64,000 nt of DNA from a virus. Its lineage: Duplodnaviria; Caudoviricetes. Under the pieces are notes generated by a model. It worked only from the letters and a program-made list of their open reading frames with translations, was not told the origin of the DNA and did no database searches. Both the position numbers and the translations under genes were made by a program. The DNA is taken from IMG/VR virus record IMGVR_UViG_3300028072_000001, positions 4,203 to 68,202 of that record, one strand, 5' to 3'. Shown here one piece after another: positions 11,017 through 56,290 of the stretch. Numbering within the stretch: position 1 is the stretch's first letter; every line of letters begins with the position of its first letter.

Positions 11017-11040
11017 GGGAAGGATACTACCAGAAAACCA

Positions 11041-11841: not shown

Positions 11842-11851
11842 CGGTTACGCC

Positions 11852-23788: not shown

Positions 23789-24087
23789 ATAAAGTGGGCG
23801 CAGACGAGAAGATGCGAGCGGTGAGCCAAAATGAATCAGTAGCGATGTGTGCTCACTTGAATGTGAAATATAACCCGTCTGATGTAGGCAGCGGGAGAAA
23901 GCGAGATCGTTGGACTTGCGCGATGTGTGGTGCAGATTTCTGGCCGCGATTCTGGCTGTTCCCGGCACCGTGGCTATCACAGGAATATATCCGCAATGCA
24001 GTAACGGAGAAGTTGGAACGTGAGCGCCAACTTACCGCTGCCCTAGCAGCAGCGCAGGGCCAGCCAGAGAAAGAGAGCGGACGATGA
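23785..24087 (+). CDS. Hypothetical protein with a CxH/CxxC zinc motif
   Basis: 100 aa; MCAH...WTCAMCG. Confidence 0.55.
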   Translation: MNKVGADEKMRAVSQNESVAMCAHLNVKYNPSDVGSGRKRDRWTCAMCGADFWPRFWLFPAPWLSQEYIRNAVTEKLERERQLTAALAAAQGQPEKESGR

Positions 24088-36589: not shown

Positions 36590-37455
36590 AGTCTCACAAT
36601 TTCCAATCTATGTTTGCGATTGTCCCAAGGAATCTTTTTTTGCGGCACGTTTCGATACTTTATGACCATCGGGAATCCGGTGTTTAGCCCAGAAGTGGAA
36701 GGCACTGCTACTACAAGCGCGGCCCAACAAACCCGGTTCGTAGCACCGCCGCAAGTGAAAGTTGAGCCAGTGGTGGCGTTAATCGTCCAAGCCCCGGCAT
36801 AACTACCTATCGCGGCGAATCTGTCTTCTAACTCGTTGGTTCCCACGCATCCCCCTATACCCGATGCGTTGAACTGATCGGAAATTTGTTTCGTGTACCC
36901 AGAACCTGCGCTGTTGACGGTTGTATCGCTAAGAGTGCATGTGAAAATCGAACTGATAATTCTGTCATTTTGCGTTGTCACGCCGATGGTCCCGGCAGAC
37001 ACGCCGACCACGCCCGAAGTGTTACCGTGAGAACTTGCTGTTAGCCCACTATCGAGGGAACACGATGTTAAATTGGCATATTCCGCAACTGTAATAGCGA
37101 CGCTGGTAGCCGGCTGATTCATCGAAACGCTGAAAGTCTGTGCGCTGGTTGTATTGATTTGCGTACAAGACATTAAAATTATTTGCGCTGCGCCACCGCT
37201 GGTATCGGATTCGGCCAACTGTGACCATGAAGTTCCCGCCGTATCGCTGAAGGTAAATACTATTGTGGCTGGATTTCCGAAAGTGTACGCAGTAGCGACG
37301 AAGCGATGGCCGGAAGCCGTTGGCGTTATCGTGGTGCTGCAAGTTGCCGAGGTTCCAGTGCCGGTGCCAGTATCCCCTTTGCAGGTATTCACTGGGTCCG
37401 TTGCGCGAGCAGGAATCGCACAAAATAAAACGATCAATAGTGTTAATACTTTCAT
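36586..37455 (-). CDS. Ser/Thr-rich beta-sandwich protein with a signal peptide; tail-region accessory protein
   Basis: MKVLTLLIVLFCAIPARA|T signal peptide; basic C-terminal tail. Confidence 0.7.
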   Translation of the reverse strand: MKVLTLLIVLFCAIPARATDPVNTCKGDTGTGTGTSATCSTTITPTASGHRFVATAYTFGNPATIVFTFSDTAGTSWSQLAESDTSGGAAQIILMSCTQINTTSAQTFSVSMNQPATSVAITVAEYANLTSCSLDSGLTASSHGNTSGVVGVSAGTIGVTTQNDRIISSIFTCTLSDTTVNSAGSGYTKQISDQFNASGIGGCVGTNELEDRFAAIGSYAGAWTINATTGSTFTCGGATNRVCWAALVVAVPSTSGLNTGFPMVIKYRNVPQKKIPWDNRKHRLEIVRL

Positions 37456-40187: not shown

Positions 40188-40195
40188 CGTGAACC

Positions 40196-40876
40196 TCAAA
40201 TGTTGATACGAACAATTCCCGTGGGAAGAGTTCCACCTGCAAGGTCCTGCCAGAGAACGCGGAGAAACTTAAACCTGGTCTGCGTGCTGGAACGGCTGTC
40301 CGACGGCAACTGCGTGCTTCGATCGATTTCGATATATTGGCTGTCCACGTCAAAGTCAGCGCCTTGCAGGATTGCGGTTATCACCGCTGGCGAAGAAGGA
40401 TAAAAAGTGCTCCACTGAACCGTGAGTCCGTTTTCGTTGTGGCCAGCAATATCCTGAATCGCAAATGCTTGGCTCGCTCCGTTCGCGCACGTTTCCCCTA
40501 TTTCCGGCATGGGCACATAGCCCATACCAGTGTCGGCCACAGCCACAACATCAGCATGCACCAGTTGAAAGGTAATCAAGCCGATGCCAGTCACGGAGTC
40601 GAACAGGACCGTAGCAATCGCCACATTCAGGATGTTGAAAGAACCGCCGGCGGCACTCGTACCGCGAATGGTAATCAGACTTCCGACCGTGGGAATTTTG
40701 CCTTCGCGAATCGTTACCGTGACCGTGGCGACGTTGCTTGAAATAGCGACGGTTAAAATCTGGAGTAGCGTGGTGGGAAATTTGGAGTCGAGAGAACCAA
40801 AAGCGTAGCCGGTCACTCCAGGTTGCAGCACCTTGGGAAAAGTGTTGACGCCTGGAGAAGAATTGTACGGTGGCAT
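40196..40876 (-). CDS. Tail-region adaptor-like protein, paralog B
   Basis: 226 aa; clearly paralogous to 43635-44321 (LQPG.GYAFGSLD...TLLQI...SQAFAIQD). Confidence 0.7.
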   Translation of the reverse strand: MPPYNSSPGVNTFPKVLQPGVTGYAFGSLDSKFPTTLLQILTVAISSNVATVTVTIREGKIPTVGSLITIRGTSAAGGSFNILNVAIATVLFDSVTGIGLITFQLVHADVVAVADTGMGYVPMPEIGETCANGASQAFAIQDIAGHNENGLTVQWSTFYPSSPAVITAILQGADFDVDSQYIEIDRSTQLPSDSRSSTQTRFKFLRVLWQDLAGGTLPTGIVRINI

Positions 40877-43634: not shown

Positions 43635-44321
43635 TTAGCTTCCCAAAGCGATTTTCCCGATAATTGATGGAGCGCTTCCTCCGGTAGTGGCGGTCACCTT
43701 CAAGCGAACGAAGTTTACAAGGTTAGGAACCTGCGCTACGGTTTCGACGTATCCGGTTGTCGTGGTCACCGCAGAACCGATAGCCGTGTACTCGCTGTCG
43801 TTGTTGTTTACCGCACCCTCAAGCTGAATGGAAATTGTGGAAGGCGCCGACGGGCAGCTATAGGCCCACGTAATTCCATAGCCGCGCCCGATCGAATCTT
43901 GGATTGCAAACGCTTGACTTTTCTGGACGGCCAGCGTTTCAGGGACTTCCGGAACTGGAACATACCCTTGTCCGGCATCCGGAGCGCTCACCACATCGGC
44001 ATGAGTCAACGGGAAAGTAATCGTTCCGATGCCGGTCACTGCATCGATCGACACCGTGGAAATCGTGGCGTTTGAAACGTTGAATGCGCCGCTGGCTCCA
44101 GCCGTGCCGGTGATCGAAATTAGACTGCCAGCCGCAGGGACTTTCCCTCTTCTGACTGTTACGGTGACTGTAGCGACGTTGCTGGTGAGAGCTACGTTGG
44201 TGATTTGCAGGAGAGTGTTCGGGAAACTCTTGTCAAGCGAGCCGAAAGCGTAACCTGGAACGCCAGGTTGCAGAAGTGGAACAGGAGTATTTCCGCCTGT
44301 TCCTGTAGGGTAAGTCGGCAT
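43635..44321 (-). CDS. Tail-region adaptor-like protein, paralog A
   Basis: 228 aa; paralog of 40196-40876 with a duplicated upstream sequence. Confidence 0.7.
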   Translation of the reverse strand: MPTYPTGTGGNTPVPLLQPGVPGYAFGSLDKSFPNTLLQITNVALTSNVATVTVTVRRGKVPAAGSLISITGTAGASGAFNVSNATISTVSIDAVTGIGTITFPLTHADVVSAPDAGQGYVPVPEVPETLAVQKSQAFAIQDSIGRGYGITWAYSCPSAPSTISIQLEGAVNNNDSEYTAIGSAVTTTTGYVETVAQVPNLVNFVRLKVTATTGGSAPSIIGKIALGS

Positions 44322-44372: not shown

Positions 44373-45335
44373 CTACTCTACCACTATTTCAGCTTGTTCC
44401 GGAATGGAAACTGAATTTATGCGCTTCGGAAGAAACGCCTTGCTCATCTCGGACTTGAAATTGCTTTCCCATCCACCAGGCAAGGAGATGTGATAGTTAA
44501 ACTCCCGTTTCGGTAGTCCGCGGCCGACTTCCCTTTCAACAAGTTTCCGTCCGAAAGCCAGAATGCGCCAGTAAGGGTCGTCAATAAATTGCTCTACCTT
44601 TTTCACCCTGTCGGCAAACCCCAACTGTCCGAACCCGAAAAATTCTTCGTAAGTCTGTGGACCACCTTCGCCATAACTGCGAACCGCTCCAACGTGGGAG
44701 CACTTGGCAATTCCAGGCGCTACGGTTTGGCTTTTGTCTTCATTCAGGATTCTTTGCAAAAGACCGTCTTGCTCCCAGTGCGACACCGCAAACTCATCCG
44801 TCATTGGGTCGGTATTGAATCTTTTAGAGATGTACCCAGGCATATCGCCGTAGTACTTTGGCGTCGAGTGTTCCACAACTAGTTCCAGTTTCTTAGCGGA
44901 GAAACAGACTCCGATACTGTAGAACCACGGCTGAAAAAGAATGTCGTCCTCAATCGGAGCTTCGCGGTTGAATATCCAGCCCATCGAACAGAAAATGTCG
45001 GGATACTCTTCTTGCTGCTCCCGATGCCATGAGAAAAAGTCAGGATGCACCATCACGTCCGATTCGACGTAGTACACGCGGTCATAGCCCGTGTTGTACG
45101 CCCACAAGTAGGCGTTCATCACATTCGCCGTGTTCCCGTAGAAATCGTTGTCAGGAACGAAATGAACATGCGCTTTGAAGAGTTCACATACTGCTTGAAC
45201 CTGTCGATTCTTGTGCGTGCCGCGATCTGGGAAGACGTGAATGGGAATGTGCGGCTCGTACTCGCGGATTCGTTTTAAGCAGCAGGCAAGCAACTCCTCA
45301 CGGCGGTAGGTCGGTACGATCACCACTTCATTCAT
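44373..45335 (-). CDS. GT-A fold (GT2-like) glycosyltransferase
   Basis: VVIVPTYRREELLACCL N-terminus; YYVESDV DxD-like motif. Confidence 0.75.
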   Translation of the reverse strand: MNEVVIVPTYRREELLACCLKRIREYEPHIPIHVFPDRGTHKNRQVQAVCELFKAHVHFVPDNDFYGNTANVMNAYLWAYNTGYDRVYYVESDVMVHPDFFSWHREQQEEYPDIFCSMGWIFNREAPIEDDILFQPWFYSIGVCFSAKKLELVVEHSTPKYYGDMPGYISKRFNTDPMTDEFAVSHWEQDGLLQRILNEDKSQTVAPGIAKCSHVGAVRSYGEGGPQTYEEFFGFGQLGFADRVKKVEQFIDDPYWRILAFGRKLVEREVGRGLPKREFNYHISLPGGWESNFKSEMSKAFLPKRINSVSIPEQAEIVVE

Positions 45336-45990
45336 AGTGCCCCCAACAAAACAGCTTGCAAGCCGATTCAGTCGGCAACCCTTCGAAATACTGCTTTACT
45401 TCGGTCACCTTCGGAAACTCTTTTTGCATTCGCAGCACCAGCGATCTATTTTGTTCCCGCGTCAGAACGTCATTATGCAATTCCATCGTCAGGTAGGCAA
45501 TCTGCCGGAAACTTTCCGGCTTGGCGGTAAGGAATATCTGCGCTTCGGCGCCTTCCACGTCCACCTTTACGCAGTCCCATCGGTTGCCGCAAAGCGCTTC
45601 GGACAGGCTTACAGTCTTCACCATGATAGAGAAATCGGACAGCGACCGAAGCATGGAATTGGCTCCAGAGTTGGCCGGGTCTCGCCATAGCAGTTTTTCT
45701 CCGGCTTCGCTCCACACCGCTGCCTGTATTGCCGTGAACGGCGGAGCATTCATATTCTTGGCAATGGCGATCTTTTGCTCCAGTTGAATGAAGTTGTCAG
45801 GGTCGGGCTCATAGGCGCGCACCATCGCGCCCCGCGCCGCACAGTACATCGAGAAAAAGCCGTGGTGAGCGCCAAGGTCTAAAACGCGGTCACCTGGTTT
45901 CGGAGTGTAGTTCTGCTCGTTGACGATCACATCCCACATCAGGCATTCAGGGGAGTCGGCTCTCATTTTCTTGCGGTCACCCATATCCAA
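45328..45990 (-). CDS. FkbM-family SAM-dependent methyltransferase
   Basis: VLDLGAHHG, AYEPDPDNF and VKVDVEGAE. Confidence 0.88.
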   Translation of the reverse strand: MDMGDRKKMRADSPECLMWDVIVNEQNYTPKPGDRVLDLGAHHGFFSMYCAARGAMVRAYEPDPDNFIQLEQKIAIAKNMNAPPFTAIQAAVWSEAGEKLLWRDPANSGANSMLRSLSDFSIMVKTVSLSEALCGNRWDCVKVDVEGAEAQIFLTAKPESFRQIAYLTMELHNDVLTREQNRSLVLRMQKEFPKVTEVKQYFEGLPTESACKLFCWGHYE

Positions 45991-46547
45991 AGGTCTTCCG
46001 TGTGAGCGTCAATAACCGTGAATCCCACATCGGTAAACTCTTTTGCGAACGCTTCCGGAGAAGGGAATACCCAACCGTCGAAATAGTCTGGGTCAGGCGT
46101 CCCTTTCACGGTTTGAATGCGGCACAAGCCGCCAGGAGCCAGTACGCGGTAGGCTTCGCGTAAATTGGCTTGCACCATTTCTAGCGTTGGCATGTGCTGA
46201 AAGCAGGTGAAGGAAAACACGAAGTCGAATAGCCCATCCGTAAAGGGAATATGGGTTCCGTCGGTATAGACAAACTCTTTGACTCCAATATGGTCGTTGA
46301 GACGAGCGTAGGAAAGAATACTTTCCGAACTGTCTATCCCTACGTACAGGTCGAAATGCCAAACAGCGAACCGGGCGAACCTGCCAGCGCCACAGCCAAT
46401 TTCCAAGCAAGCCCCGTCAGTGGGAATGCCGTCCAGTATCTTGCTGAATTGAAGAGTTGTTTCCGTGCGGTCTTCTTGCTCTTTTCCGATCACCTTCAGC
46501 CACATATCCCGCTCGTCGGTTACGTCCCAGTGTTCTTTGCTGGCCAT
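45963..46547 (-). CDS. Class I SAM-dependent methyltransferase (Methyltransf_11/25-like)
   Basis: CLEIGCGAGR, VGIDSS, FDFVFS and LAPGG; ATG at 46547. Confidence 0.88.
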   Translation of the reverse strand: MASKEHWDVTDERDMWLKVIGKEQEDRTETTLQFSKILDGIPTDGACLEIGCGAGRFARFAVWHFDLYVGIDSSESILSYARLNDHIGVKEFVYTDGTHIPFTDGLFDFVFSFTCFQHMPTLEMVQANLREAYRVLAPGGLCRIQTVKGTPDPDYFDGWVFPSPEAFAKEFTDVGFTVIDAHTEDLWIWVTARK

Positions 46548-47644
46548 TAGGACTCCATCAACCGATAGGCTTTGTGCAGCGAGCGAGAGGCCCAGGTGGA
46601 ATGAATCACGGCACATTTCCTAGCTCTCAAAGCCCACACTTTTGGAGATGCTAGGTTGTCCGCGATTGACTTTGCTTCACGGGACCGGATAACCGCCCAA
46701 GCAGCTTCGGTAATCATTTCCCCAACTTCCGAAATTCTGCCATGCCCTTCATTGGCGATGGTTCGTTGCGCCACGAATGTTGTATCTGGGTGTAAATCCC
46801 CCTGCTGCCAATGTTGTTGTGCCCAGTCGTCGTATGTCTTCCCCAGTCCTCGCATCAGCCCTTTGGATATGAGTTCGTCCACATCCAAAAAGGATACGTA
46901 CGCCCATTCTGGACTGCCGATATTCGCCAGGGGTTGTCGTTTCCCTTCGTCAATATCCATCGTGAGAATGCGAATGAGTGACCGATTCGCGTATCCAGTC
47001 GTCGGCTCAAACTTGGTTCGTTCGTGCCATTGGTGCGCGCAGAGCGCGGAGTCAACGTATTCGATCTTCCAACCATTTTTTCTAAGGATGTAGAAAAAGA
47101 AATCATCCTCATGGCCGTAACCGTAGAACAACTCTTCGTACCCGCCAATTTCCAGCATCTCTTTGCGGCGAAAGGCATGCGGACCGGCTCCGGAAACCCA
47201 TCCAGGTCGCGAACCTGCCGTCGGATGGTTATACCAGCCAGCGAATGAGCCATCCTCCGCCAAGTCTTCGATCAGCGGAGTGGCCAGAATCTTTTCTCCT
47301 CCCAGGACACGCACAACCAGATTCTCTATCACATTGTTTTTGTGGAGCACTTCGGCGCACTGCAAAATGACAATATCGTTGGTAGCCGCGCTCAGGCACA
47401 TATTCCACAATCTAGTAATGGACTGGAAAACCGGAAACGGCTCCGCTCTCTCGTTGCGGATATACGTCGCTCCATACTCCGCCGCTAGTTGTTCTGTCAG
47501 CCCGTCGTTCTCTTCCTCTACCACGATCAATTCCAGTTCCCCAGGATAGTTCTGCTTGCGAATGCTTTCGAGTGTATTCCGCAGGAGCGCGCCGCGGCGC
47601 CAGCAGGGGAATGCGATTGAAACGCTTGGCCAGTTCATAGTCAC
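46547..47644 (-). CDS. GT2-family glycosyltransferase
   Basis: VSIAFPCWRRGALLRNTLESI, ELIVVEE and EIGGYEELFYGYGHEDDFF (GT2/GT7C-type C-terminal motif). Confidence 0.85.
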   Translation of the reverse strand: MTMNWPSVSIAFPCWRRGALLRNTLESIRKQNYPGELELIVVEEENDGLTEQLAAEYGATYIRNERAEPFPVFQSITRLWNMCLSAATNDIVILQCAEVLHKNNVIENLVVRVLGGEKILATPLIEDLAEDGSFAGWYNHPTAGSRPGWVSGAGPHAFRRKEMLEIGGYEELFYGYGHEDDFFFYILRKNGWKIEYVDSALCAHQWHERTKFEPTTGYANRSLIRILTMDIDEGKRQPLANIGSPEWAYVSFLDVDELISKGLMRGLGKTYDDWAQQHWQQGDLHPDTTFVAQRTIANEGHGRISEVGEMITEAAWAVIRSREAKSIADNLASPKVWALRARKCAVIHSTWASRSLHKAYRLMES

Positions 47645-48360
47645 TCCGGTTTGTAGAAAACGTGTATTTCGTGGTCGAATCCAAGAAACTCAGCGGTGTA
47701 GCCAAAACCTTTCACCCAGTCGTGAATGTCGGCTACCACCATTCCGTAGTGCCGCATCATCAGTTCAGGATGGAAACTGGTCCAAATCAAAGGCCGATGT
47801 TCGAAGAGTGTCTTCGCGCATCCACGCAATACTTTGCCTTCGGCACCTTCCACGTCAATCGTCAGCGCATGGGGAATAATTCCAGTCTCCGAAATAAACT
47901 GGTCGATCGTTACTTGCGGAACGCGGTGAGTGTCTTCGTGAATGTGGCGGTGCGAAGCAGAAGTCCATATTTTCCCAGTCAGCGCAGGAACCGGCCAACA
48001 GCCTTGATAGCCTTCATCGTAATCCGGATAGGCTTTAGTGTTTTCGTCGCTCACCAAAGCAATCCAACAAGCCAGCGGGTCGGCATATCCTTCGGCATCC
48101 CAAGTCGCTTTGATATTCTGCCAGTTGGCATAATTCGGCTCGAAGAGAACCATTGCTTTCGGACCAACGAATTTCGCGTAAATCGCGGAAGCCCATCCGG
48201 TCTCCGCTCCAATATCAAACAGAACATCGTCTTTGCATAGATTGTCTTCCATGCTCAAGCAGCGTGCCCGTTCCCAGTCTTCCCAGTTTGCCAGGTCCGC
48301 AATATGCTCAGGCATCTTGACCTTGTAGCGTCCGTTCACAAGACGCTCAACAAAACTCAT
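47641..48360 (-). CDS. FkbM-family methyltransferase
   Basis: LFDIGAETG, LFEPN and TIDVEGAEGKVLRG; ATG 48360 overlaps the upstream stop. Confidence 0.85.
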   Translation of the reverse strand: MSFVERLVNGRYKVKMPEHIADLANWEDWERARCLSMEDNLCKDDVLFDIGAETGWASAIYAKFVGPKAMVLFEPNYANWQNIKATWDAEGYADPLACWIALVSDENTKAYPDYDEGYQGCWPVPALTGKIWTSASHRHIHEDTHRVPQVTIDQFISETGIIPHALTIDVEGAEGKVLRGCAKTLFEHRPLIWTSFHPELMMRHYGMVVADIHDWVKGFGYTAEFLGFDHEIHVFYKPE

Positions 48361-48914
48361 ACACGGGTGTACCAAATGCTCGAACCGCCGGCGGCCTGGT
48401 TCGGTGTCGGAGAAATAAGCTCGCGAACCGCATGCACGACGCCAGGATAGCCCCAATCGTAATCGTGACCGGCTAGGATTCCACCGCGTTCGACCAGCGG
48501 CCGCCAAGCGAGAATATCCGCCTTCACCGATTCGTAATCGTGCGCGGCATCTATGAACACAAACCGGAATTGCGTCCCTATATTCAAAAAATACTTGGCC
48601 GCAGAAAGAGACGGAAGGCGCATCGGGACAATCATTCCGCTGGCAATGTGGTCGGACACGTTCCCGCAGAACTCCGTGAACAGATAGTCATGCGGCTTGT
48701 CTTTCAGAAAGTCCTGGTTCTCTTCGCTGCCCTGCCATGTATCCACGGCGAAGATGTGCCCATCGCGCTTGTTGTCCGCCATCGCTCGCGTGGTTCGCCC
48801 CATCCAAGAGCCAATCTCGACGACTAGGCCGTGCTTGGCTTGTTCGGCCAGCCACTCCATCTCAGGCGTGCTCATCCATCCCGTTACTTTTTCTGCGCGC
48901 TCAAGATTCACCAT
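48357..48914 (-). CDS. Class I SAM methyltransferase (Methyltransf_24-like)
   Basis: VEIGSWMGRT, AVDTW and FIDAAHDYE...LAGHDY. Confidence 0.88.
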   Translation of the reverse strand: MVNLERAEKVTGWMSTPEMEWLAEQAKHGLVVEIGSWMGRTTRAMADNKRDGHIFAVDTWQGSEENQDFLKDKPHDYLFTEFCGNVSDHIASGMIVPMRLPSLSAAKYFLNIGTQFRFVFIDAAHDYESVKADILAWRPLVERGGILAGHDYDWGYPGVVHAVRELISPTPNQAAGGSSIWYTRV

Positions 48915-49687
48915 GTCATCGGCCTCTTGGGGTCGTCCTTATCGTGGCCGCGACCGCCTAAATGTTGGCTGCGTTGTATGGACGGCTCCGAAGGAGCGTA
49001 GACCATAACCTTGTAGTCTTCCCAGGGATGATAAGAAATCGGCCCGTAAATGACCGGCTCAATCTCGCAGTAAGTGTTTTCGGTGAATAGCGTTTCGTCT
49101 TCCATCATTCCGCGCAACCACTTCGTTGTCGTCAGGAATGGACAGCACCAGAACTGTCTGGTGCGAATCATCGGCACTCCACAGACTAGCGGAGGTTCAG
49201 ATACTTTCGTTCCACCATGCTCCCCATCCGCGCCTTCGTAGCAGTCAAGCATTAGGTGTTGGTGCAACGGATGAATGTCCGGAGTGTTGTGGAAGCGCAC
49301 CACTCGCGCACGATCTTGCTGAATGGCGTTAACGATGCCGGCCCAGTCGATCGGGTCAAGCGTCAGAGCGTAGTCATGCTCCTGCCACAGCACCAGAGGA
49401 GTTGTGACGCGCCGCAAGCCTTCGCGGACCATGAATCCCTGCTGAACCGAATCAGCCCATTCGAAGATTCGTAAATTGGGACGGCGGCGCAGCGAGTCTT
49501 TGTAAAGTTCGTAGCCGGCTCGCCGGCTTTCGTGTTCAGGGACGCGAATACCATCGCAGAGCAGGAACGTTTGCACGCCTGGTAAATGGAATTGCGTGCT
49601 CTGCTGAACCTTATCGAATATCTCCGATGAAGGATGCGAAGCGAGCGGAGACGTGCTGGTAATGACGGTTATCAGATTCTCGTACAT
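48908..49687 (-). CDS. Divergent GT-A-like glycosyltransferase
   Basis: ITVITSTSP...HPS...LLCDG and LVLWQEHDY; located within the glycan cluster. Confidence 0.55.
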   Translation of the reverse strand: MYENLITVITSTSPLASHPSSEIFDKVQQSTQFHLPGVQTFLLCDGIRVPEHESRRAGYELYKDSLRRRPNLRIFEWADSVQQGFMVREGLRRVTTPLVLWQEHDYALTLDPIDWAGIVNAIQQDRARVVRFHNTPDIHPLHQHLMLDCYEGADGEHGGTKVSEPPLVCGVPMIRTRQFWCCPFLTTTKWLRGMMEDETLFTENTYCEIEPVIYGPISYHPWEDYKVMVYAPSEPSIQRSQHLGGRGHDKDDPKRPMTW

Positions 49688-50571
49688 AGTTCCCCTGTCA
49701 GTTGCTCAATGTCTTCGCCAAGCCAAAGATTGAAGTCCCGCTTGTATTCTTGCCACCATGCTAAACATTCCACAGCCCGAAGTTTCGTGTCCTTTAGGAA
49801 TCCGACCATCGCGGGAAGGAATTTCCAATCGCTGATCGTGGGCAGAGGATGGCCAGGTCCTAGAACATAATCCCAGAATCCAGGTTCGCTCCGCGTTGGG
49901 CTGAAATTATCGAGTATTGGAATCGCTCCACATTCCAGAGCATCCCATGCTCTTGCTGCGTCGGGAGAAAAAAGACCGGATGGGCACGGAACGATCTTCG
50001 CACGGCAGAGGCAGCGATAGTACTCAGGCAAGGAAATTCCCTGGTGATACCCGCGAGTCTCTATGATGAAGCCGCCCCAATCTAGCGTTCGCAGAGCGTC
50101 CACCACGGCACGGCGCCGTTCGTGAGTGACCTGTCCACCGAAAAACCAATCTAAGTCTCTTTGTACGTTGTAGACAGAATTTTCTAAATGTCTCAAGTGG
50201 TCGTGACCGTAGCCGTTGACCATGAAACGTTTTGCAAAGTCGTGCTTACCTGGTAGCGGCTCCTGAACCCAAGCGAGCATGTTTTCGTGCTCGATCATTT
50301 CCGAAGGAAAACTTGCCTCTTCGTCGCCAAGGTAAATCAGCAGACACCATTTCAGGCTCTTAATGTCGTTCTGCAATTTAGCGAGTCCGCCAATCTCGCG
50401 GCCGCCGTGGACCACCACAACCGCGCCGTCCAGTCCTGTCGGCATCTTGCTCGCTCCGCCGTGATGCTCGCAAGGGTACAGGTCCAGCATATCGTTGAGC
50501 ATGGCCGTACAGTTGAATCGGCCCCGGCCATACTCTTGAGCATGCCAGACGACGTTTATAGTCCGAGCCAA
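49672..50571 (-). CDS. Exostosin/GT47-like glycosyltransferase
   Basis: WFFGGQVTHERR and YYRCLCRAKIVPCPSG...RAWDALECGAIPI. Confidence 0.7.
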   Translation of the reverse strand: MARTINVVWHAQEYGRGRFNCTAMLNDMLDLYPCEHHGGASKMPTGLDGAVVVVHGGREIGGLAKLQNDIKSLKWCLLIYLGDEEASFPSEMIEHENMLAWVQEPLPGKHDFAKRFMVNGYGHDHLRHLENSVYNVQRDLDWFFGGQVTHERRRAVVDALRTLDWGGFIIETRGYHQGISLPEYYRCLCRAKIVPCPSGLFSPDAARAWDALECGAIPILDNFSPTRSEPGFWDYVLGPGHPLPTISDWKFLPAMVGFLKDTKLRAVECLAWWQEYKRDFNLWLGEDIEQLTGELCTRI

Positions 50572-51407
50572 TGCCTATTCTCCTCTTGAGCCATCCAACG
50601 CGCTGTTTCGGTTACAGATTCCACTATCGGCCTACGTTCCCATCCAAACTGCATGAGTTTTCTGCCATCCAATCCATGTTCCAAAAAAAATCCAGGGCGA
50701 ACGTCTTTCGCGTCTCGATAAACAGTTTTTATCTTCACATCCAGCGCCAGAGAAACCAGTCTCACTAAGTATTCAAGGGAATAGGACACACTGTCTGAGA
50801 TATTGTATTTCTGTCCAACCAGTCCACCTTTGAGAAGCGTCACGATGGCCGAGCAAGCGTCCTTCACATGCAAAAAATCTCTTTTCCCTTCATGGAGATT
50901 GACATAGATCGGAACTGGTTCACCGTTTAGCGCACAGCGCACTATGGTCGGAACAAACTTGTTTGCTGGCTGTCTCTCGCCGAAAAGATTCTGGCAGTGA
51001 GTAATCATAGTCGGAACGCCGTAAGTGCCTCTCCATGCCATACACATGGATTCGCAAGCTGCTTTTCCTGCCGCATACGGGCTTATTGGGTTGTAGCGAT
51101 CAGAAGGAACGAAATCCGAGATGACTTCTTTTGGTCCAAAAACTTCATCGCTCGAAAAGTACAGAAAGGCTTCCAGTTGTTTCTGTTCCGCAGCCCAATC
51201 CAATAACCCTATCGTCGTAGTAATATCATTAAGAACCAAATCAGAGTCCACGATCGACTTATCAATTTGCGAATGTCCCGCCAAGTGAACCACGTAATCT
51301 GGGGAATCATCTTGGGAAACAATCTCCCAATCCGTAGTTTCCCGCACGTATTCCTGCAAGTGTGAGCCGATAAATCCTTCCTCGCCAGCGATGTAGAGTT
51401 TGGTCAT
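50556..51407 (-). CDS. NAD-dependent NDP-sugar epimerase/dehydratase (RmlB-like SDR)
   Basis: IAGEEGFIGSHL, HLAG, SSDEVFG, YAAGK (YxxxK) and NLFGERQ. Confidence 0.85.
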   Translation of the reverse strand: MTKLYIAGEEGFIGSHLQEYVRETTDWEIVSQDDSPDYVVHLAGHSQIDKSIVDSDLVLNDITTTIGLLDWAAEQKQLEAFLYFSSDEVFGPKEVISDFVPSDRYNPISPYAAGKAACESMCMAWRGTYGVPTMITHCQNLFGERQPANKFVPTIVRCALNGEPVPIYVNLHEGKRDFLHVKDACSAIVTLLKGGLVGQKYNISDSVSYSLEYLVRLVSLALDVKIKTVYRDAKDVRPGFFLEHGLDGRKLMQFGWERRPIVESVTETARWMAQEENRHWLGL

Positions 51408-53269
51408 TGGTTCACCGTCTCAAAAATCTCACGCATGCGAACTGTCCAAGTATCGTGCTTGCAAACGTAATCCACTCCATCTATGACAACTTGTTTTACC
51501 CCTCTAGGATTTTGGGAAATATCCGAAAGCAAGACTTCGATGGAATATCGCAGGCTTTGCAAATCTTGAGCCTCATAACATGCCATCGGTACTTCCAACC
51601 CCTTGATCGAAGGATGAGCGAGTAATCCATGCCGTCCGATAGTTTCCGGAACACGGTCACTCCAGTAGTTAGGAATCCCCGCACCAAAACAATCTCCGAC
51701 CACCACTTTCATCGAAGCGTATACGTCATTGAGCAGATGGCCGCGGACTCCCTCTATGTGCTTGAACCGCTCGCCGTAGGTCTCTTGCAGAAATTCCACC
51801 ATCTTTTTCCGGAAAGGATATTCCGCGTGGTATTCCTTCGCTCCCACAAATCCCACATCGCAGCGGTACTCATCTCTTGGCGTCCCAGGATGGCAATAGA
51901 CTTCCGAGACCGCTGGTTTCATCCAGAAATGATTTACTCCCCGTTTGGCGAAGTCTTCTTGCCTTGAACCGTCGGCCGTAAACACGTACTGCGTTTTCCA
52001 AAACGGAATCTTCCCAATTAGGGATTCGCGGGTAGGAATATCCCAGAATTTATCCAGGTGAACGGAAAGCGTTTTTACGCCTTCGTTCTTGCACCACTCC
52101 AGTAGCTCGAACATATCTTCATCCGGCACCTGCAACCAGCCAGGAGTGCGAACCCAGATAAGCGTTTGTGCGTGCTCACAGGCTTCGTAAATTTCCCTTG
52201 TCCCGACTTTGTTTTCTTGGAGTTTTTCTACTTCGTAGCCTAGCCCTTGCTCCAAGGCCCATAGAATCTGGTTCTCTGTCGAGTGTTCGGCCGTGAAGTT
52301 ACCAATGAAAGCGACGGACGATGCCGTGCCGCTGCGTGCGCGTGGAGCATGCACCGTAGGAACTGGGATTGTGAAATGCTCCGTGAGAGCCGCTTTGAAC
52401 GCTTCATTGCCTTCGAGAAATTCCTTGCGTGGCGCACCGGACTGCGAGAATCCGCGCTTGCCAAGCACCAGCAAATCCTTGACAGCCTTGTGAACGTCCA
52501 GCGCCGAGACTTCGTACATTTTCACGGAATTGAAAGAAGATTGCCCAGTAGCGGGAATCCGGTAGGCCGATTCAATCTCGTTCATCGGCGGAGCGTCCAC
52601 TGTACAGATATTGGCGTTCACCGACATTGCTTCGTGCAGGACGTGCGACCATCCTTCGGTAGCCGACGGCTGCAAATGAAACTGGCAGGAGTTTTGCAAT
52701 CGCACCAATTCATCGTTTCCAATCTTGCTGAAAACGGTGACATTCTCCGGAATGTTCTCTACTGGAAAGTCGGTCACTACGAATAAGTGAGCGCCTATCC
52801 CCTTGCCGTTTTTCTTCCAGCGCCAAGCGTCGATCACCGCTTCGGTATTCTTTGCCCTACTCTGTCCGGCAATGTGCAGGAAATTGGGAGCGCGTTCTAC
52901 AGACGGGTCGAACCTGTCTTCGGAAAGAAAGCCTACGTAGTGCGCTATGTCGCCAAACAGTTCCCGGCAGACTCTATGCGATTCGTGAGTTTTGCAAAGG
53001 ACTTTCGCGAAGTGGCGGCGAACCAGTTTGATTCGCTCGCTGTCCAGAAATTCAGGATTGGTGATGAGCCACGGCGGAGCTTCGGAAAGGTCCACTAGTC
53101 CGCGATAGACCACTTCCAGGCAAATCAGCAGGTCATAGCGCTCTGCATGCGGTTGATTGAATTGGACGAAACTGACTTCGTGTCCAAGAGATTCGATAAT
53201 TGGCTTGATTAGGCGATAGTCTTTTTCCAGACCCCGCCCGTTTTCGTTTCCCGCAATCCCGATTTTCAT
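51404..53269 (-). CDS. Two-domain GT-B glycosyltransferase (GT4-like plus CgeB/Glyco_trans_1_2-like)
   Basis: First domain EGWSHVLHEAM (ExxxxxxxE); second domain DVGFVG...YWSDRVPETIG; ATG at 53269. Confidence 0.85.
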   Translation of the reverse strand: MKIGIAGNENGRGLEKDYRLIKPIIESLGHEVSFVQFNQPHAERYDLLICLEVVYRGLVDLSEAPPWLITNPEFLDSERIKLVRRHFAKVLCKTHESHRVCRELFGDIAHYVGFLSEDRFDPSVERAPNFLHIAGQSRAKNTEAVIDAWRWKKNGKGIGAHLFVVTDFPVENIPENVTVFSKIGNDELVRLQNSCQFHLQPSATEGWSHVLHEAMSVNANICTVDAPPMNEIESAYRIPATGQSSFNSVKMYEVSALDVHKAVKDLLVLGKRGFSQSGAPRKEFLEGNEAFKAALTEHFTIPVPTVHAPRARSGTASSVAFIGNFTAEHSTENQILWALEQGLGYEVEKLQENKVGTREIYEACEHAQTLIWVRTPGWLQVPDEDMFELLEWCKNEGVKTLSVHLDKFWDIPTRESLIGKIPFWKTQYVFTADGSRQEDFAKRGVNHFWMKPAVSEVYCHPGTPRDEYRCDVGFVGAKEYHAEYPFRKKMVEFLQETYGERFKHIEGVRGHLLNDVYASMKVVVGDCFGAGIPNYWSDRVPETIGRHGLLAHPSIKGLEVPMACYEAQDLQSLRYSIEVLLSDISQNPRGVKQVVIDGVDYVCKHDTWTVRMREIFETVNQ

Positions 53270-53278
53270 TGAGGGGAG

Positions 53279-53308
53279 AGTGTATACGCAGTTTTGCGTT
53301 CTTTGCAA
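53279..53308 (-). promoter_or_regulatory. Internal promoter for the glycan cluster
   Basis: TTGCAA (53308-53303)-18-TACACT (53284-53279), 9 nt before the ATG; no SD. Confidence 0.5.
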
Positions 53309-53311
53309 GCC

Positions 53312-56290
53312 CTAGAAATTCACGGCGCCTTTTCCGCCCTTTTCTTTTGGCGTGCCGTACTGCTTTTCTTTGGCAAGAATCTGCCGGCGAATGAACTCTG
53401 GTTCCAGTTGCCGTTCGAATAGGTGAATCCGCACATCCGTACCAGGCATGCGGATAGTGTACTGGCCGAGAGCGTTGCGGCCTTCGTAGTCCCAACCCGC
53501 TTCCTTAATGACTGGCGCGATCGTTGCCGGAGGCTCGTTGGCCGCCGGAGGAGCGTTTCCGAATATCTCCCGTTGCGGACTGGCTTCCGTGCCGCGGAAT
53601 AGCGGCGAGAGAGTTTCCATACGGCCAGCGGCGGCGGAAATATCCTTTGGCTTGTTGGCTTCGGCTGTCAGGTTCTCACCGGAAACCTTTGCGGCACCTT
53701 CGCGCTGTTTCGCTACGTTTTCTTCCATGCCTGGAATGATGCCTGTCTGCCCTTTGGCAATCTCAGGAATGCGCGGCGCGGGAGTTGCCTCTTCCTCTGG
53801 GGGATTGAATACATCGGCACCAGGTTCGATCGTTTCCGGCTCCGCATCGGGATTATCGAGCGACTTTAGGAAGTCCATTGCGCCCATCCCTGGAGCTTTT
53901 GCGTAGTTCCCCTTTAGAAAGTCGTCGGCTCGCGTTATGAGCTTGTTGTATGCCGCGCTGTCCTTGTTGCGGAGAGCTTTCAGTACCGCTTGCGGGTTAA
54001 CGTCGGGATTCTCCCGCATGAATGGATACATGCTGCGACCGCTCTTTACTCCGCGCCAGGTTCCCCCGGCACGCGCCCCTTTGGTATTGCGTCGTCCAAA
54101 AGCGGTCAATGGCTGGTCGGTCTGACTAACCTCATCGAAATAAGCCCCTGGACGGTCGCCAGTGGCCATCGCTCCAGCTTCCGAAGCGAGCAATCCCTCT
54201 GCATTGGCAATATCCTCATGGCTCAAGCGTTCGGCTACCGGCTGAATCTTCTTTTTCGCCGTCTTGTCCAGTTTGGGTTTGATTTCCCTAAGCGAAGCCG
54301 CTTGCTGCGCTTCCGGAGTGACCGTAGGCGTAACCTTGCCGATTTCTGGAATCTTCGCAGCGCCTTCCATGATCGGCTTCGTCGGAGCGTTCACGTCCAG
54401 CGGACCTTTGAACGGAATCTTAGGAACCGGAACAGCACCGGCGACTTCCGGCAACAATCCCTTTGGCGCGGGAGTACGTGTACCTTGCTCGCCGCGCATT
54501 CCGACACGGCCTTCATCCGTTGGCGCACCAATGGGCTCAATCCGGAACTGGCCGGGAACGGACGGCGGAGCAACCGGACCTTCTGGCGGAACTGGACCAG
54601 GGAGCAATCCGCGCACAAATCTTCCACCAGGCACAGGAACGACCGGCTGGCCTTCTGGAACGGTTAGCTTCACTGGACCGCTGGTATCAGGGCCATTCCC
54701 CAAAGGCTCAGGAATTGGCGGAAGTAATCCAGCCGTCGGTGGCCGCGGCGTCGGCGGAGTGATTTCCAGATTGGACCGCGAAAGGTCTTCCAAGCCTTTT
54801 TGCGCCAAACGTCCCGGCGAAGCCTTTAGGTGCAACCGTTCAAACAGGTTGACGTTGCGTCCAAGTCCGCCAGTAGCGCGCACGCTGTCCAGCACCCGTT
54901 CCGCTTCCACTGGATTCATTTTGTTGCGAAGGGCATCACGCACTTCCGACAATGCGCCATAGCGACGATTGAACTCTTTGATTCCTGGTTCGTTCACACG
55001 TTCGAGCAAGTCTCCGATGCTCTTGTGAAGTTCGCCCTTCATCTCGTTAAATTTTTGCAGGTCCGGACTCAGTTCGAGAGCCAGCGCCCTAGCTTCCGGA
55101 GTCATACCCTCAGCGCGCCGGAGACGGGCATTCACTTTGACCAGCATCTTATCCGCATCGCCAAGATTGATTTGCTCAGGAATATCCATCTTGAACGTCT
55201 TTTCAATTCTTTTCAGTTGGTCGATTGTGGCGTCACCAAGCAACTGTTCCCGCGAGAGCGCAGGCAATTCGGCATTTCGGTCGATTTGCGGCTGCCGTTC
55301 TTTCTTCCAAATATCGTCCAGCCGGTTGTCAATGTTTTCAACCGTCTGCCGCAGTCTCATATCTGGCCTGGAGATGCCACCTTGTTTTCCAGATTCTCCA
55401 AGAGGTTGCTTGCGTTCGATTTCTGCAAGGTCCGGAGCAGCGAGCGAAAATGCTTCGCGCAATCCAGGTTGTCCCGAAGGCATCCCAGAAGACCGTAGGA
55501 CTTTTTCAACTCCCCGCCTCGCAAGAGGTTCCTGAAGATTGGCGAGCGCCGGTCCTTTAATACCTGGTGCAACCGCCGGGGTTGTGAATCTGTCTGCCAG
55601 AGCGTCAGTTATCGGACGAATTACGCCAGCATGCAACCCGCGTCCGGCAGCTTCCACCGCTGGCCCTACAAATGGAGCCGCAGCAGCAACCGCAGCCGGA
55701 GCAGCGGCCTCTCCGATGATCTTTCCACCTTCACCGCGTTCCGCTTGCTCCTCTTCCGCTTTGTTGCTCACTCCTAGAAAAGAGCCAGCGCCAACGACTC
55801 CCGCCGTGCCGATAGATGGAATAATTCCGCTTCCAGCCTTGCGTGCGCGCTCGTATTCGTGGGCAGCTTCCCCGCCAGCTTGCGCTAAACCGCCCTCGGA
55901 AGGATTGATACTCGGATGCCCAAAAAGAAAACCAGATACGGAGCTAGTGTCTGGTCCTTCGGGAGCCATGCTTTTCAATTTATCCCAGAACGCAGAGCCA
56001 GCACCCTTTAGCGAGATGCCCTCGCCAGGGCGTTGCTTTTCAAAATCAGTCAATTCTGGTTTAGGAGCTTTACCAGACTCTACCGCTTTCCGTAACCGCG
56101 GACTGGCGCCGGGAAGTTCGTCGCGCTGCGATTCTTCAGCACCACCAGGAACATACTGCTTACCTAGATAGTCTTCGAGACTTCCAGCCTCCGAAACTGC
56201 CGGCTTATGGGCGTACTTCTCTAATTCGTCGTCGTCGGACGCAGGTTTCGCCGCATACTTTTTCAGTTCGTCGTCAACTTCAGTCGGCAT
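53312..56290 (-). CDS. Large internal virion/DNA-ejection protein (P22 gp16-like position)
   Basis: 992 aa; DDEL.KYA N-terminal repeats, A/G-rich hydrophobic segment, helical core, Pro-rich linker. Confidence 0.65.
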   Translation of the reverse strand: MPTEVDDELKKYAAKPASDDDELEKYAHKPAVSEAGSLEDYLGKQYVPGGAEESQRDELPGASPRLRKAVESGKAPKPELTDFEKQRPGEGISLKGAGSAFWDKLKSMAPEGPDTSSVSGFLFGHPSINPSEGGLAQAGGEAAHEYERARKAGSGIIPSIGTAGVVGAGSFLGVSNKAEEEQAERGEGGKIIGEAAAPAAVAAAAPFVGPAVEAAGRGLHAGVIRPITDALADRFTTPAVAPGIKGPALANLQEPLARRGVEKVLRSSGMPSGQPGLREAFSLAAPDLAEIERKQPLGESGKQGGISRPDMRLRQTVENIDNRLDDIWKKERQPQIDRNAELPALSREQLLGDATIDQLKRIEKTFKMDIPEQINLGDADKMLVKVNARLRRAEGMTPEARALALELSPDLQKFNEMKGELHKSIGDLLERVNEPGIKEFNRRYGALSEVRDALRNKMNPVEAERVLDSVRATGGLGRNVNLFERLHLKASPGRLAQKGLEDLSRSNLEITPPTPRPPTAGLLPPIPEPLGNGPDTSGPVKLTVPEGQPVVPVPGGRFVRGLLPGPVPPEGPVAPPSVPGQFRIEPIGAPTDEGRVGMRGEQGTRTPAPKGLLPEVAGAVPVPKIPFKGPLDVNAPTKPIMEGAAKIPEIGKVTPTVTPEAQQAASLREIKPKLDKTAKKKIQPVAERLSHEDIANAEGLLASEAGAMATGDRPGAYFDEVSQTDQPLTAFGRRNTKGARAGGTWRGVKSGRSMYPFMRENPDVNPQAVLKALRNKDSAAYNKLITRADDFLKGNYAKAPGMGAMDFLKSLDNPDAEPETIEPGADVFNPPEEEATPAPRIPEIAKGQTGIIPGMEENVAKQREGAAKVSGENLTAEANKPKDISAAAGRMETLSPLFRGTEASPQREIFGNAPPAANEPPATIAPVIKEAGWDYEGRNALGQYTIRMPGTDVRIHLFERQLEPEFIRRQILAKEKQYGTPKEKGGKGAVNF

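Follow-up and report, generated by a model that had tools for sequence, protein, structure and literature searches.

A complete 68-kb genome of an uncultured soil phage carries a cassette of ten co-directional, overlapping ORFs on the minus strand, which fill positions 44373–53308 of the 64,000-nucleotide stretch analyzed here (the window). Five of the encoded proteins are glycosyltransferases with six domains between them, four are SAM methyltransferases, and the tenth is a compact RmlB-like sugar dehydratase. The best reading of the cassette, which we regard as on balance probable, is that it decorates virion proteins with a methylated oligosaccharide.

Enzymes of the cassette

The original prediction had described a ten-gene cluster with this set of enzymes, and both the cluster and its composition were confirmed by ORF calls and domain checks. 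When sensible start codons were used, the overlaps of 1–28 nt between neighboring genes were also borne out, several of them in the form of ATGA. The predicted internal promoter was not supported, as a scan of the region 40–58 kb gave 5 promoter-like sites vs. 10.9 expected by chance. Membrane helix prediction found no helix in any of the ten proteins, all of which are predicted to be soluble.

Features of the cassette and its surroundings (positions in the window)
Feature	Length (aa)	Position	Strand	Characteristics
992-aa upstream neighbor	992	53312..56290	-	low Ser/Thr; hypervariable
Two-domain glycosyltransferase	634 (ORF)	51404..53308	-	N-half GT-B/GT4-like; C-half Glyco_trans_1_2 (CgeB-like)
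Compact extended-SDR NDP-sugar 4,6-dehydratase-like enzyme	283	50556..51407	-	GxxGxxG, SDE, and YxxxK motifs
Exostosin/RXYLT1-like glycosyltransferase	299	49672..50571	-	weak assignment
GT-A fold glycosyltransferase	259	48908..49687	-	invariant CDG (44–46) and EHD (103–105)
Methyltransf_24 (TylF/CmcI-type) SAM methyltransferase	185	48357..48914	-	Pfam cut-off passed
FkbM-family methyltransferase	288 (longest ORF)	47641..48507	-	Pfam cut-off passed
GT2-family glycosyltransferase	365	46547..47644	-	above Pfam cut-off; Glyco_transf_7C-like HEDD region
Methyltransf_11 class I SAM methyltransferase		45963..46616	-	Pfam cut-off passed
Second FkbM-family methyltransferase	220 (ORF)	45328..45990	-	Pfam cut-off passed
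GT-A glycosyltransferase	320	44373..45335	-	N-terminal half GnT-I/GT13-like
ad228, downstream neighbor	228	43635..44321	-	conserved; jellyroll with inserted beta-barrel
Fibre/tailspike-like protein	895	40943..43630	-	weak sub-threshold GH43-like matches; CHB_HEX_C-type domain
ad228 paralogue		40196-40876

Homologues of the 634-aa ORF all begin to align at its residue 14, and its true start is therefore probably the ATG at 53269, giving a protein of 621 aa. Its N-terminal half scored 25.0 bits with Glycos_transf_1 of Pfam, slightly below the cut-off of 26.4, and its C-terminal half matched the glycosyltransferase family phrog_28745 (E 5e-49). The label 'CgeB-like' that had been given to the C-terminal half stands by way of homologues of 32–41% identity that contain PF13524 (Glyco_trans_1_2); a direct search of the window protein with PF13524 gave no match. 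The 299-aa protein, the gene of which is kept in all cassette-bearing relatives, displayed weak exostosin-type signals only (RXYLT1_C, E 9e-4; EXT1 profile, E 0.7). The AF2 model of the 259-aa protein (pLDDT 89) was similar to B4GALNT1, SpsA, and ppGalNAc-T2 in Foldseek (E 3e-9 to 1e-7), and on this model the protein has a GT-A fold. The 320-aa protein matched the GnT-I profile (E 5e-4).

All four methyltransferases contain the glycine-rich SAM-binding loop. The likely start of the 288-aa FkbM ORF is the ATG at 48360, which gives a 4-nt overlap with the upstream stop, and that of the Methyltransf_11 gene is the ATG at 46547. No homologue of the latter gene turned up in the five fully compared relative genomes (G001–G005); one with 46% identity is present in the relative locus L005/L016. 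The 283-aa SDR scored 129 bits with Epimerase; its top NCBIfam match was dTDP-glucose 4,6-dehydratase (156 bits vs. a cut-off of 365), and its N-terminal region is shorter than usual by about 40 residues.

Position in the genome and recurrence in other phages

As had been predicted, the cassette lies within the virion gene block: the same long minus-strand block contains TerS, TerL, a portal-sized protein, a highly conserved capsid candidate, and fibre-like genes. The names 'ejection proteins' and 'tail adaptors' proposed for the flanking genes were too firm; synteny and weak leads from fold or embedding comparisons point to virion roles for these neighbors, and the 992-aa protein could be an internal protein of the virion or an ejection protein. 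On the other side of the cassette, ad228 is in every case followed by a fibre or spike gene.

In the relative loci L003/L021, L004/L013, L005/L016, L009, L010, L011, L012, and L014, a variant of the cassette fills the interval bounded by the 992-like gene and ad228, and complete relatives of 67–68 kb carry such variants. G001 and G002, two 48-kb relatives with terminal repeats (CheckV completeness 74% and 100%, respectively), keep the order of the structural backbone, but the ten genes have no homologues there. The block of G001 is contiguous and consists of TerL, portal, the capsid candidate, genes of 1356, 203, 132, and 221 aa, a 601-aa homologue (matched in the locus search), ad228, and the fibre gene. 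The cassette is an accessory element that occupies one constant site among the virion genes, a position that associates it with virion function but is short of proof.

The CgeB-like family has a similar placement in unrelated phages, as it adjoins a capsid gene or sits upstream of tape-measure-sized tail genes in 5/5 carrier contigs, i.e. all those of at least 8 kb that were examined. The CgeB-like domain is fused to an FkbM domain in L037, L040, and L042, and an 889-aa protein of L039 joins homologues of the 634-aa C-terminal half, the 299-aa protein, and the 259-aa protein, with a homologue of the 288-aa FkbM enzyme encoded immediately upstream. These fusions of the CgeB-like domain with other cassette enzymes suggest that the parts work as one pathway. 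Since the module recurs in many phages, its description as an undescribed system was too strong.

Comparison with known systems

To our knowledge, glycosylation of phage virions has so far been demonstrated only in the mycobacteriophages Che8, Corndog, and Myrna. Glycosyltransferases encoded by these phages are reported to glycosylate the capsid and the tail tube (PMC12363180, PMC12619734, citing Freeman 2023), and glycosylation of the Corndog capsid is reported to require gp38 (PMC12363180, citing Freeman 2023). The analogy with mycobacteriophages made in the original prediction is apt: soluble glycosyltransferases occur together with an O-methyltransferase, and the Corndog genes are likewise in the virion operon, in the order portal (gp34), TylF/Methyltransf_24 enzyme (gp35), gp36, glycosyltransferases (gp37 and gp38), and capsid protease. 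The Methyltransf_24 enzyme of the cassette is distantly homologous to the Corndog gp35 O-methyltransferase (25% identity, E 5e-4), and this was the sole match, since BLAST detected no homology between the cassette glycosyltransferases and Corndog gp36–38. Compared with Corndog, the cassette has ten genes instead of approximately four, adding a sugar dehydratase and the FkbM and Methyltransf_11 methyltransferases. No Ser/Thr-rich acceptor tails were found in this phage, which has a backbone that is not actinophage-like and probably infects a Gram-negative host.

True homologues are present in the structural modules of Streptomyces phages of the JustBecause/Satis type (gp47–48) and the Wentworth type (gp32–34). 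JustBecause gp47, annotated as a glycosyltransferase, is 32% identical to the N-terminal half of the 634-aa protein, gp48 is 30% identical to the 320-aa GT-A enzyme, and both genes are flanked by the capsid gene on one side and the tail chaperone/tape-measure genes on the other. In Wentworth, a homologue of the C-terminal half (gp32, 32%) accompanies an FkbM methyltransferase (gp34), and the two come after a receptor-binding protein with BppL_N repeats. Unlike the cassette, these sets comprise only two to three genes, lack an SDR, and belong to phages of Gram-positive hosts; a literature search found no paper on the function of such glycosyltransferase/methyltransferase pairs.

CgeB itself is presumably a member of PF13524. 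In Bacillus subtilis, this enzyme glycosylates the spore-crust protein CgeA at Thr112 (PMC13577073). A soluble Glyco_trans_1_2-type enzyme acting on a threonine of a self-assembled shell protein may serve as a mechanistic model for the C-terminal domain of the 634-aa protein, although the latter is tied to PF13524 only through the homologues described above. Chlorovirus PBCV-1 (A064R, A111/114R) provides a viral example of cytoplasmic multidomain glycosyltransferases with methyltransferases: A064R has two rhamnosyltransferase domains and a 2-O-methyltransferase and acts on capsid glycans, and the PBCV-1 enzymes cap a capsid glycan with a 2-O-methyl sugar (PMC7826918). Glycosyltransferase–methyltransferase fusions are shared by the CgeB-like family, but PBCV-1 is a eukaryotic giant virus with N-linked glycans, and the likeness is one of enzyme architecture, with no sequence kinship claimed.

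Target of the glycan and proposed pathway

The possibility exists, though we consider it unlikely, that the enzymes instead remodel the host envelope, acting at the inner membrane face on undecaprenyl-linked intermediates or another host glycan. The host priming enzyme, exporter, and ligase would then be borrowed and the cell surface altered during infection, e.g. blocking superinfection or keeping progeny off debris. ABC-transporter-dependent O-antigen and S-layer glycan pathways typically use peripheral cytoplasmic enzymes to make methyl-capped glycans, and these pathways resemble the cassette in their peripheral glycosyltransferases, terminal methyltransferases, and deoxysugar enzymes. The host is likely Gram-negative, because the phage encodes a PEP-CTERM protein, and solubility alone is compatible with an envelope target, because peripheral soluble glycosyltransferases can act on lipid-linked acceptors. 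Aquatic phages rich in glycosyltransferases, e.g. the cyanomyovirus S-SCSM2R with 13, have also been interpreted as surface modifiers (PMC12801897). However, a search of the complete genome found no Bac_transf (priming phosphoglycosyltransferase), Glycos_transf_4, Wzx, or Wzy_C (polymerase/ligase), so that priming transferase, flippase, exporter, polymerase, and ligase are all absent, in agreement with the earlier argument against O-antigen conversion. Furthermore, none of the cassette proteins has membrane segments, the host export machinery would need to accept a foreign glycan, and enzymes of the same families are encoded beside capsid or tail genes by unrelated phages, among them Streptomyces phages, the Gram-positive hosts of which have very different envelopes.

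It is less probable still that non-virion phage or host proteins are glycosylated in the cytoplasm before export, in the manner of serine-rich adhesins or autotransporters. Candidates would be, for example, the 914-, 289-, and 1757-aa proteins encoded downstream of the cassette, which are the most Ser/Thr-rich of the genome (24–28%) and have hydrophobic N-termini (signal peptide or N-terminal anchor); the only dense Ser/Thr stretches genome-wide are in the 289- and 1757-aa proteins. In the comparison with G001–G005, homologues of the 914- and 1757-aa proteins were found only in the closest relative, G003, and none of the 289-aa protein. Since all three are absent from the cassette-bearing G004 and G005, the cassette does not co-occur with them. 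For the same reason, and because they are not mucin-like and carry signal peptides or an anchor, the Ser/Thr-rich 'fibres' originally proposed as acceptors are not supported.

That the product is a methylated oligosaccharide left free in the infected cell, or a small molecule that is glycosylated there, e.g. a signalling, protective, or anti-defence metabolite, appears very improbable. Deoxysugar tailoring of natural products commonly involves FkbM, TylF, and Methyltransf_11 enzymes and RmlB-like dehydratases, and no acceptor protein could be pinpointed in our analysis, but the genome has no aglycone-forming or scaffold enzyme, and such a product leaves the constant placement among virion genes of many phages unexplained. 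Glycosylation of modified bases to evade restriction is the classical role of phage glycosyltransferases, and diverse DNA glycans are now known (Pyle 2024, as cited in PMC12619734), but this reading is hardly credible here, as was originally argued, since a six-frame search of the complete genome found neither Thymidylat_synt (thymidylate-synthase-type hydroxymethylase) nor Tet_JBP (TET/JBP dioxygenase), the replication/recombination module lies apart from the cassette, and six glycosyltransferase domains with four methyltransferases far exceed the needs of known DNA sugar modifications.

The analysis establishes the gene content, the predicted solubility, the genomic position, the accessory status, and the domain fusions; for the preferred reading, decoration of virion proteins, we infer both the target and each chemical step. 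The ten genes would form a single late-expressed cytoplasmic pathway that assembles, directly on virion proteins of the phage, a short oligosaccharide containing O-methylated sugars; candidate acceptors are a capsid, decoration, or tail/fibre protein. The capsid and tail candidates showed neither Ser/Thr-rich tails at the C-terminus nor mucin-like tracts, and the capsid-candidate alignment showed no feature specific to cassette-bearing genomes. The SDR would convert a host NDP-hexose to NDP-4-keto-6-deoxyhexose, supplying a deoxy-sugar donor, and one glycosyltransferase would put the first sugar on a folded or assembling structural protein; by analogy with CgeB and CgeA, the best candidate for this step may be the CgeB-like domain. 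The GT4-like, exostosin-like, and three GT-A enzymes would extend the chain, and the FkbM, Methyltransf_24, and Methyltransf_11 enzymes would methylate sugar hydroxyls, thereby capping and diversifying the glycan. As an accessory and fast-changing module that keeps to one site among the virion genes, the cassette would serve as a locus for a variable surface coat.

Enzymes encoded by the cassette

Ten ORFs were found to occupy positions 44373-53308 on the minus strand, as had been proposed from the sequence, and the proposed overlaps of 1-28 nt between neighbours held once sensible start codons were chosen, several of the junctions being ATGA. The start of the first gene, which encodes a 634-aa protein, is most likely at 53269. 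The original prediction also included an internal promoter; this element found no support, as promoter-like sites were rarer than expected by chance.

The N-terminal half of the 634-aa protein was GT-B/GT4-like, with a Glycos_transf_1 score of 25.0 bits (slightly under the cut-off of 26.4) and 32% identity to gp47 of the Streptomyces phage JustBecause. The C-terminal half matched phrog_28745 (E 5e-49). When the genome was searched directly with PF13524 (CgeB-type Glyco_trans_1_2), this half was not matched; the same family was precomputed on eight of its homologues, which showed 32-41% identity to it (tblastn E 2e-45 to 2e-66). The 299-aa protein gave weak exostosin-type signals, i.e. RXYLT1_C at 19.1 bits, under the cut-off of 27 (E 9e-4), and the EXT1 profile at E 0.7, and a weak RXYLT1_C match was also obtained for its fused homologue in the related contig L039. 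The 365-aa protein scored over the Pfam cut-off as a GT2 enzyme, and the 320-aa protein is a GT-A enzyme that matched the GnT-I profile (E 5e-4) and was 30% identical to JustBecause gp48. No family match by sequence was obtained for the 259-aa protein. Its AlphaFold2 model (pLDDT 89) displayed a GT-A fold, with Foldseek E values of 3e-9 to 1e-7 against B4GALNT1, SpsA, and ppGalNAc-T2, and the residues E103-H104-D105 (EHD) and C44-D45-G46 (CDG) were invariant in 20 homologues, which identifies it as a GT-A enzyme with an acidic DxD-type metal/nucleotide motif. When PDB sequences were searched with the 634-, 299-, and 259-aa proteins by phmmer and by profile, no significant match was obtained.

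The four methyltransferases (two FkbM, one Methyltransf_24, and one Methyltransf_11) scored over the Pfam cut-offs, and each contained a SAM loop. The 288-aa and 220-aa ORFs reached 45.6 and 34.3 bits, respectively, with PF05050 (cut-off 22.7), and 65.6 and 72.1 bits with TIGR01444 (cut-off 37.7), and their glycine-rich SAM loops read DIGAETG and DLGAHHG. By score and loop, both belong to the FkbM family.

The 283-aa protein is an extended SDR (PF01370, 129 bits), which had been described as RmlB-like. Its best NCBIfam match was dTDP-glucose 4,6-dehydratase (TIGR01181), but at 156 bits this match was below the cut-off of 365, and the protein was ruled out as an RmlB equivalog. Since it retains the NAD-binding GxxGxxG, the catalytic S/T-D-E (SDE), and YxxxK motifs, we regard it as a dehydratase-like extended SDR acting on a nucleotide sugar. 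Compared with the 326-aa versions in the related loci L003 and L009, approximately 40 residues are missing at its N-terminal Rossmann region; the short form is kept in the closest relatives (288 aa in L010 and L011).

Genomic setting and variation among relatives

The 68,202-bp IMG/VR phage record, of which the window covers bases 4203-68202, has direct terminal repeats and was rated 100% complete by CheckV; the ten genes make up approximately 13% of it. The record is found in soil metagenomes, and the sequencing runs listed as containing it were all soil metagenome DNA, with no RNA run among them. No isolated phage matched the cluster by megablast, and the phage has no near isolated relative. 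Apart from the two terminase genes, a RecT fusion, a papain-like peptidase, and a SleB-type hydrolase were recognisable, and no tRNAs were found in the window. The highly conserved capsid candidate matched no Pfam or PHROG family; its own family comprised more than 400 clusters at 90% identity, with homologues 70-93% identical and many of them on 65-68 kb contigs, which indicates that the phage lineage is abundant in public metagenomes. A search for relatives of the capsid candidate in GTDB genomes returned none. The phage encodes a PEP-CTERM protein that scored over the Pfam cut-off, suggesting that the host is probably a Gram-negative bacterium with exosortase. A separate observation concerned a 270-aa protein that matched PHROG 424 ('PAPS reductase'; E 1e-28), matched no Pfam family at E <= 0.01, and had a homologue in none of the five relatives compared in full.

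The cassette lies within one long minus-strand block running from TerL through portal and capsid to fibre genes, at a site conserved across relatives. In the relative G001 the block is contiguous and contains TerL, a portal-sized protein, the capsid candidate, three small proteins, genes for 1356-, 203-, 132-, and 221-aa proteins, a variable gene, the 228-aa protein, and the fibre; a weak 601-aa homologue (E 7e-5) was found in the same stretch. Thus the proposed embedding among virion genes was supported, whereas the more precise placement 'between ejection proteins and tail adaptors' is a plausible label only. Most structural proteins of the phage resembled no PHROG or Pfam family; of the ten flanking ones that were compared, only the 895-aa fibre-like protein gave matches.

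The upstream neighbour of the cassette, encoding 992 aa, was hypervariable, ranging from approximately 450 to 1533 aa among relatives with often undetectable similarity, and both genes flanking it were conserved. In the atlas embedding its nearest named cluster was the P22 gp16 DNA-transfer protein (score 0.91, 127 shared features), which we take as a lead only. The downstream neighbour, a 228-aa protein, has a paralogue, and each of the two is immediately followed by a large fibre/spike-like gene. Conservation of the family extended to 14 IMG/VR loci, in which it always precedes a fibre or spike gene. The AlphaFold2 model of the 228-aa protein was a jellyroll with an inserted EF-Tu-domain-2-like barrel. 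Foldseek against the PDB gave nothing at E <= 0.001 (the best match was the Sf11 tail chain, E 1.2e-3, TM 0.29), the BFVD search gave weak tail-protein look-alikes, and VIA-align gave Z values of approximately 10 for XepA/YomS and 9.2 for the BPP-1 cement protein, near the background range. As these structural matches were middling, the name 'tail adaptor' was not confirmed and 'decoration protein' is not proposed. The 895-aa protein gave weak, sub-threshold matches of the GH43/GH32 beta-propeller-like type at residues ~275-383, together with carboxypeptidase-regulatory-like domains and a chitobiase/hexosaminidase C-terminal domain. We consider the protein a likely glycan-degrading tailspike, encoded directly after the glycan-building cassette.

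Features of the phage genome discussed in the text
Feature	Coordinates in the window	Strand	Remark
449-aa capsid candidate	901-2250	minus	highly conserved
165-aa ORF	2536-3033		structural region; tracks cassette
128-aa ORF	outside window, first 4.2 kb of genome		structural region; tracks cassette
333-aa protein	just outside window, first 4.2 kb of genome		
TerL	9328-11016		recognised gene
TerS	13122-13727		recognised gene
Early gene	19175-19555		tracks cassette
Early gene	20374-20682		tracks cassette
recT			early gene; tracks cassette
270-aa protein	24084-24896	plus	PHROG 424 match
1757-aa protein	31316-36589	minus	Ser/Thr-rich
289-aa protein	36586-37455	minus	Ser/Thr-rich
914-aa protein	37455-40199	minus	Ser/Thr-rich
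Paralogue of 228-aa protein	40196-40876	minus	~227 aa each, 50% identical
895-aa protein	40943-43630	minus	fibre/tailspike-like
228-aa protein	43635-44321	minus	downstream neighbour of cassette
283-aa SDR	50556-51407	minus	cassette gene
992-aa protein	53312-56290	minus	upstream neighbour of cassette

A synteny survey across relatives, as suggested with the original prediction, showed cassette variants at one fixed slot in eight related genomes (L003/L021, L004/L013, L005/L016, L009, L010, L011, L012, and L014). The 634-, 299-, and 320-aa genes were present in every variant and the 259-aa gene in most; the SDR occurred in 0, 1, or 2 copies, and the methyltransferases and GT2 came and went. Two further genomes, G001 (CheckV 74%) and G002 (CheckV 100%), 48.4 kb and with terminal repeats, kept the structural backbone and had homologues of none of the ten genes; most early genes and the 914-, 289-, and 1757-aa proteins were also without detectable homologues there. 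In both, the 228-aa homologue was directly followed by a sequence homologous to the N-terminal part of the 333-aa protein, and in G001 this sequence formed the start of the large fibre gene. The cassette is thus accessory and modular. Presence and absence over the five relatives showed that five other genes or ORFs track the cassette, but since the two genomes without the cassette are also those most distantly related to the phage, we draw no inference from this.

Domain fusions, recurrence, and known systems

The C-terminal domain family of the 634-aa protein had 684 representatives at E <= 1e-3 among 1.84 billion cluster representatives, in three architectures: (i) alone (~310 aa), (ii) followed by a second domain (~530-570 aa), and (iii) at the C-terminus of ~620-630 aa proteins, as in the window. 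All five inspected contigs of at least 8 kb carrying the domain were phage-like, and the gene adjoined a capsid gene or lay upstream of tape-measure-sized tail genes, in the company of GT4, FkbM, CmcI/Methyltransf_24, Methyltransf_11, and SDR genes. Homologues in isolated phages came from Streptomyces phages only, again within structural modules: in JustBecause, gp47-48 are flanked by the capsid gene on one side and the tail chaperone/tape-measure genes on the other, and in Wentworth a receptor-binding protein with BppL_N repeats precedes gp32 and the FkbM methyltransferase gp34.

Fusions of CgeB-like and FkbM domains were found in L037, L040, and L042. In L039, a 61-kb JGI 3300063058 contig from a siphovirus-like phage, an 889-aa protein (10001-12670) fuses homologues of three separate window genes, namely the C-terminal half of the 634-aa protein (37% identity), the 299-aa protein (33%, E 1e-38), and the 259-aa protein (32%, E 2e-31). 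Its gene lies between head-side and tape-measure-sized tail genes, with a homologue of the 288-aa FkbM enzyme just upstream. From these fusions, we conclude that the enzymes concerned act in one pathway.

According to accounts in PMC12363180 and PMC12619734, which cite Freeman et al. 2023, virion glycosylation by phage glycosyltransferases has been reported for the mycobacteriophages Che8, Corndog, and Myrna, where capsid and tail-tube proteins are modified and shielded from antibodies. We checked the gene order of Corndog, which is portal gp34, TylF/Methyltransf_24 gp35, gp36, GT2-like gp37, GT25-like gp38, and capsid protease; both the type of cassette and its location correspond to those found here. 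The window thus shares with the Che8/Corndog type the location of glycosyltransferases and an O-methyltransferase with virion structural genes, here judged by position. The glycosyltransferases implicated by experiment are Corndog gp38 and Che8 gp110. In the comparison, which was made with Corndog, no homology of the glycosyltransferases was found: the sole detectable relation among gp35-38 was between the Methyltransf_24 enzyme and gp35 (25% identity, E 5e-4), and BLASTP of gp36-38 against all proteins of the genome gave nothing better than E 0.2. Mechanistic analogues are Bacillus CgeB, which adds sugar to Thr112 of the crust protein CgeA (PMC13577073), and Chlorovirus A064R, in which two rhamnosyltransferase domains and a 2-O-methyltransferase act on the capsid glycan (PMC7826918). 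Although put forward as the best candidate for an undescribed system, the cassette is a larger form of a known kind of system and not categorically new.

Target of the predicted glycan

The best explanation, towards which we lean with modest confidence, is a late, cytoplasmic pathway by which proteins of the virion would receive a methylated oligosaccharide. In its favour are the position and accessory behaviour of the cassette, its recurrence among the virion genes of unrelated phages, the domain fusions, and the mycobacteriophage precedent; the promoter and the Ser/Thr-rich acceptors that belonged to the proposal did not stand.

It is also conceivable, if unlikely, that the enzymes remodel the host envelope by using host export machinery. 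None of the ten cassette proteins had a predicted membrane helix, and hydrophobic segments elsewhere in the genome were confined to short ORFs and a few tail-region proteins. In agreement with the earlier claim that flippase and polymerase are missing, a six-frame search of the complete genome, in which control genomes were positive, found none of PF02397, PF00953, PF01943, and PF04932 (Bac_transf/WecA-type priming, Wzx, and Wzy/ligase). The absence of these enzymes and the solubility of the proteins argue against O-antigen/EPS conversion via a self-contained pathway.

Acceptors were also sought among the proteins of the phage. A Ser/Thr-window scan of all proteins revealed neither mucin-like tracts nor tails rich in Ser/Thr on the capsid and tail candidates, whereas acceptor regions of the Che8/Corndog type are Ser/Thr-rich and C-terminal. 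The most Ser/Thr-rich proteins of the genome are of 914, 289, and 1757 aa; the first two have a signal-peptide-like start, and the third has a hydrophobic N-terminal anchor and HYDIN/ASH/Cep192-type Ig repeats. Homologues of the 914- and 1757-aa proteins were found only in the closest relative, G003, and those of the 289-aa protein in none. The relatives G004 and G005 carry the cassette and lack all three, which speaks against these proteins as targets and, together with the scan, against the Ser/Thr-rich fibres suggested as acceptors. Alignment of the capsid candidates from cassette-bearing and cassette-free genomes showed nothing specific to the former, and neither approach yielded a convincing acceptor candidate.

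Glycosylation of non-virion proteins appears improbable, and the synthesis of a free glycoside or small molecule is more doubtful still. DNA glycosylation is very improbable, as the complete genome, searched in six frames with positive controls, lacks PF00303 (thymidylate-synthase-type hydroxymethylase) and PF12851 (TET/JBP).

Returning to the virion as the target, we tentatively propose a joint reading, to which we give a somewhat less than even chance: virion self-glycosylation with methyl-capped glycans may be widespread beyond actinobacteriophages. It would draw on a portable toolkit in which a CgeB-like enzyme serves as protein O-glycosyltransferase, exostosin-like and GT-A enzymes act as extenders, and methyltransferases are of the FkbM or TylF kind. 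The soil lineage studied here, the host of which is probably Gram-negative, would have enlarged this toolkit into a ten-gene, fast-reshuffled 'virion serotype' locus beside the tailspike genes, with the chain initiated by the CgeB-like domain on a folded structural protein and not on a Ser/Thr-rich tag.

If the cassette coats the virion, self-glycosylation reaches well past a few mycobacteriophages into an abundant soil phage lineage, and on a greater scale, with ten genes. From the domain fusions, a minimal enzyme set emerges that is common to cultured Streptomyces phages. A variable glycan coat would affect adsorption, environmental stability, and predator or immune recognition, and would bear on how therapeutic or tracer phages are designed.
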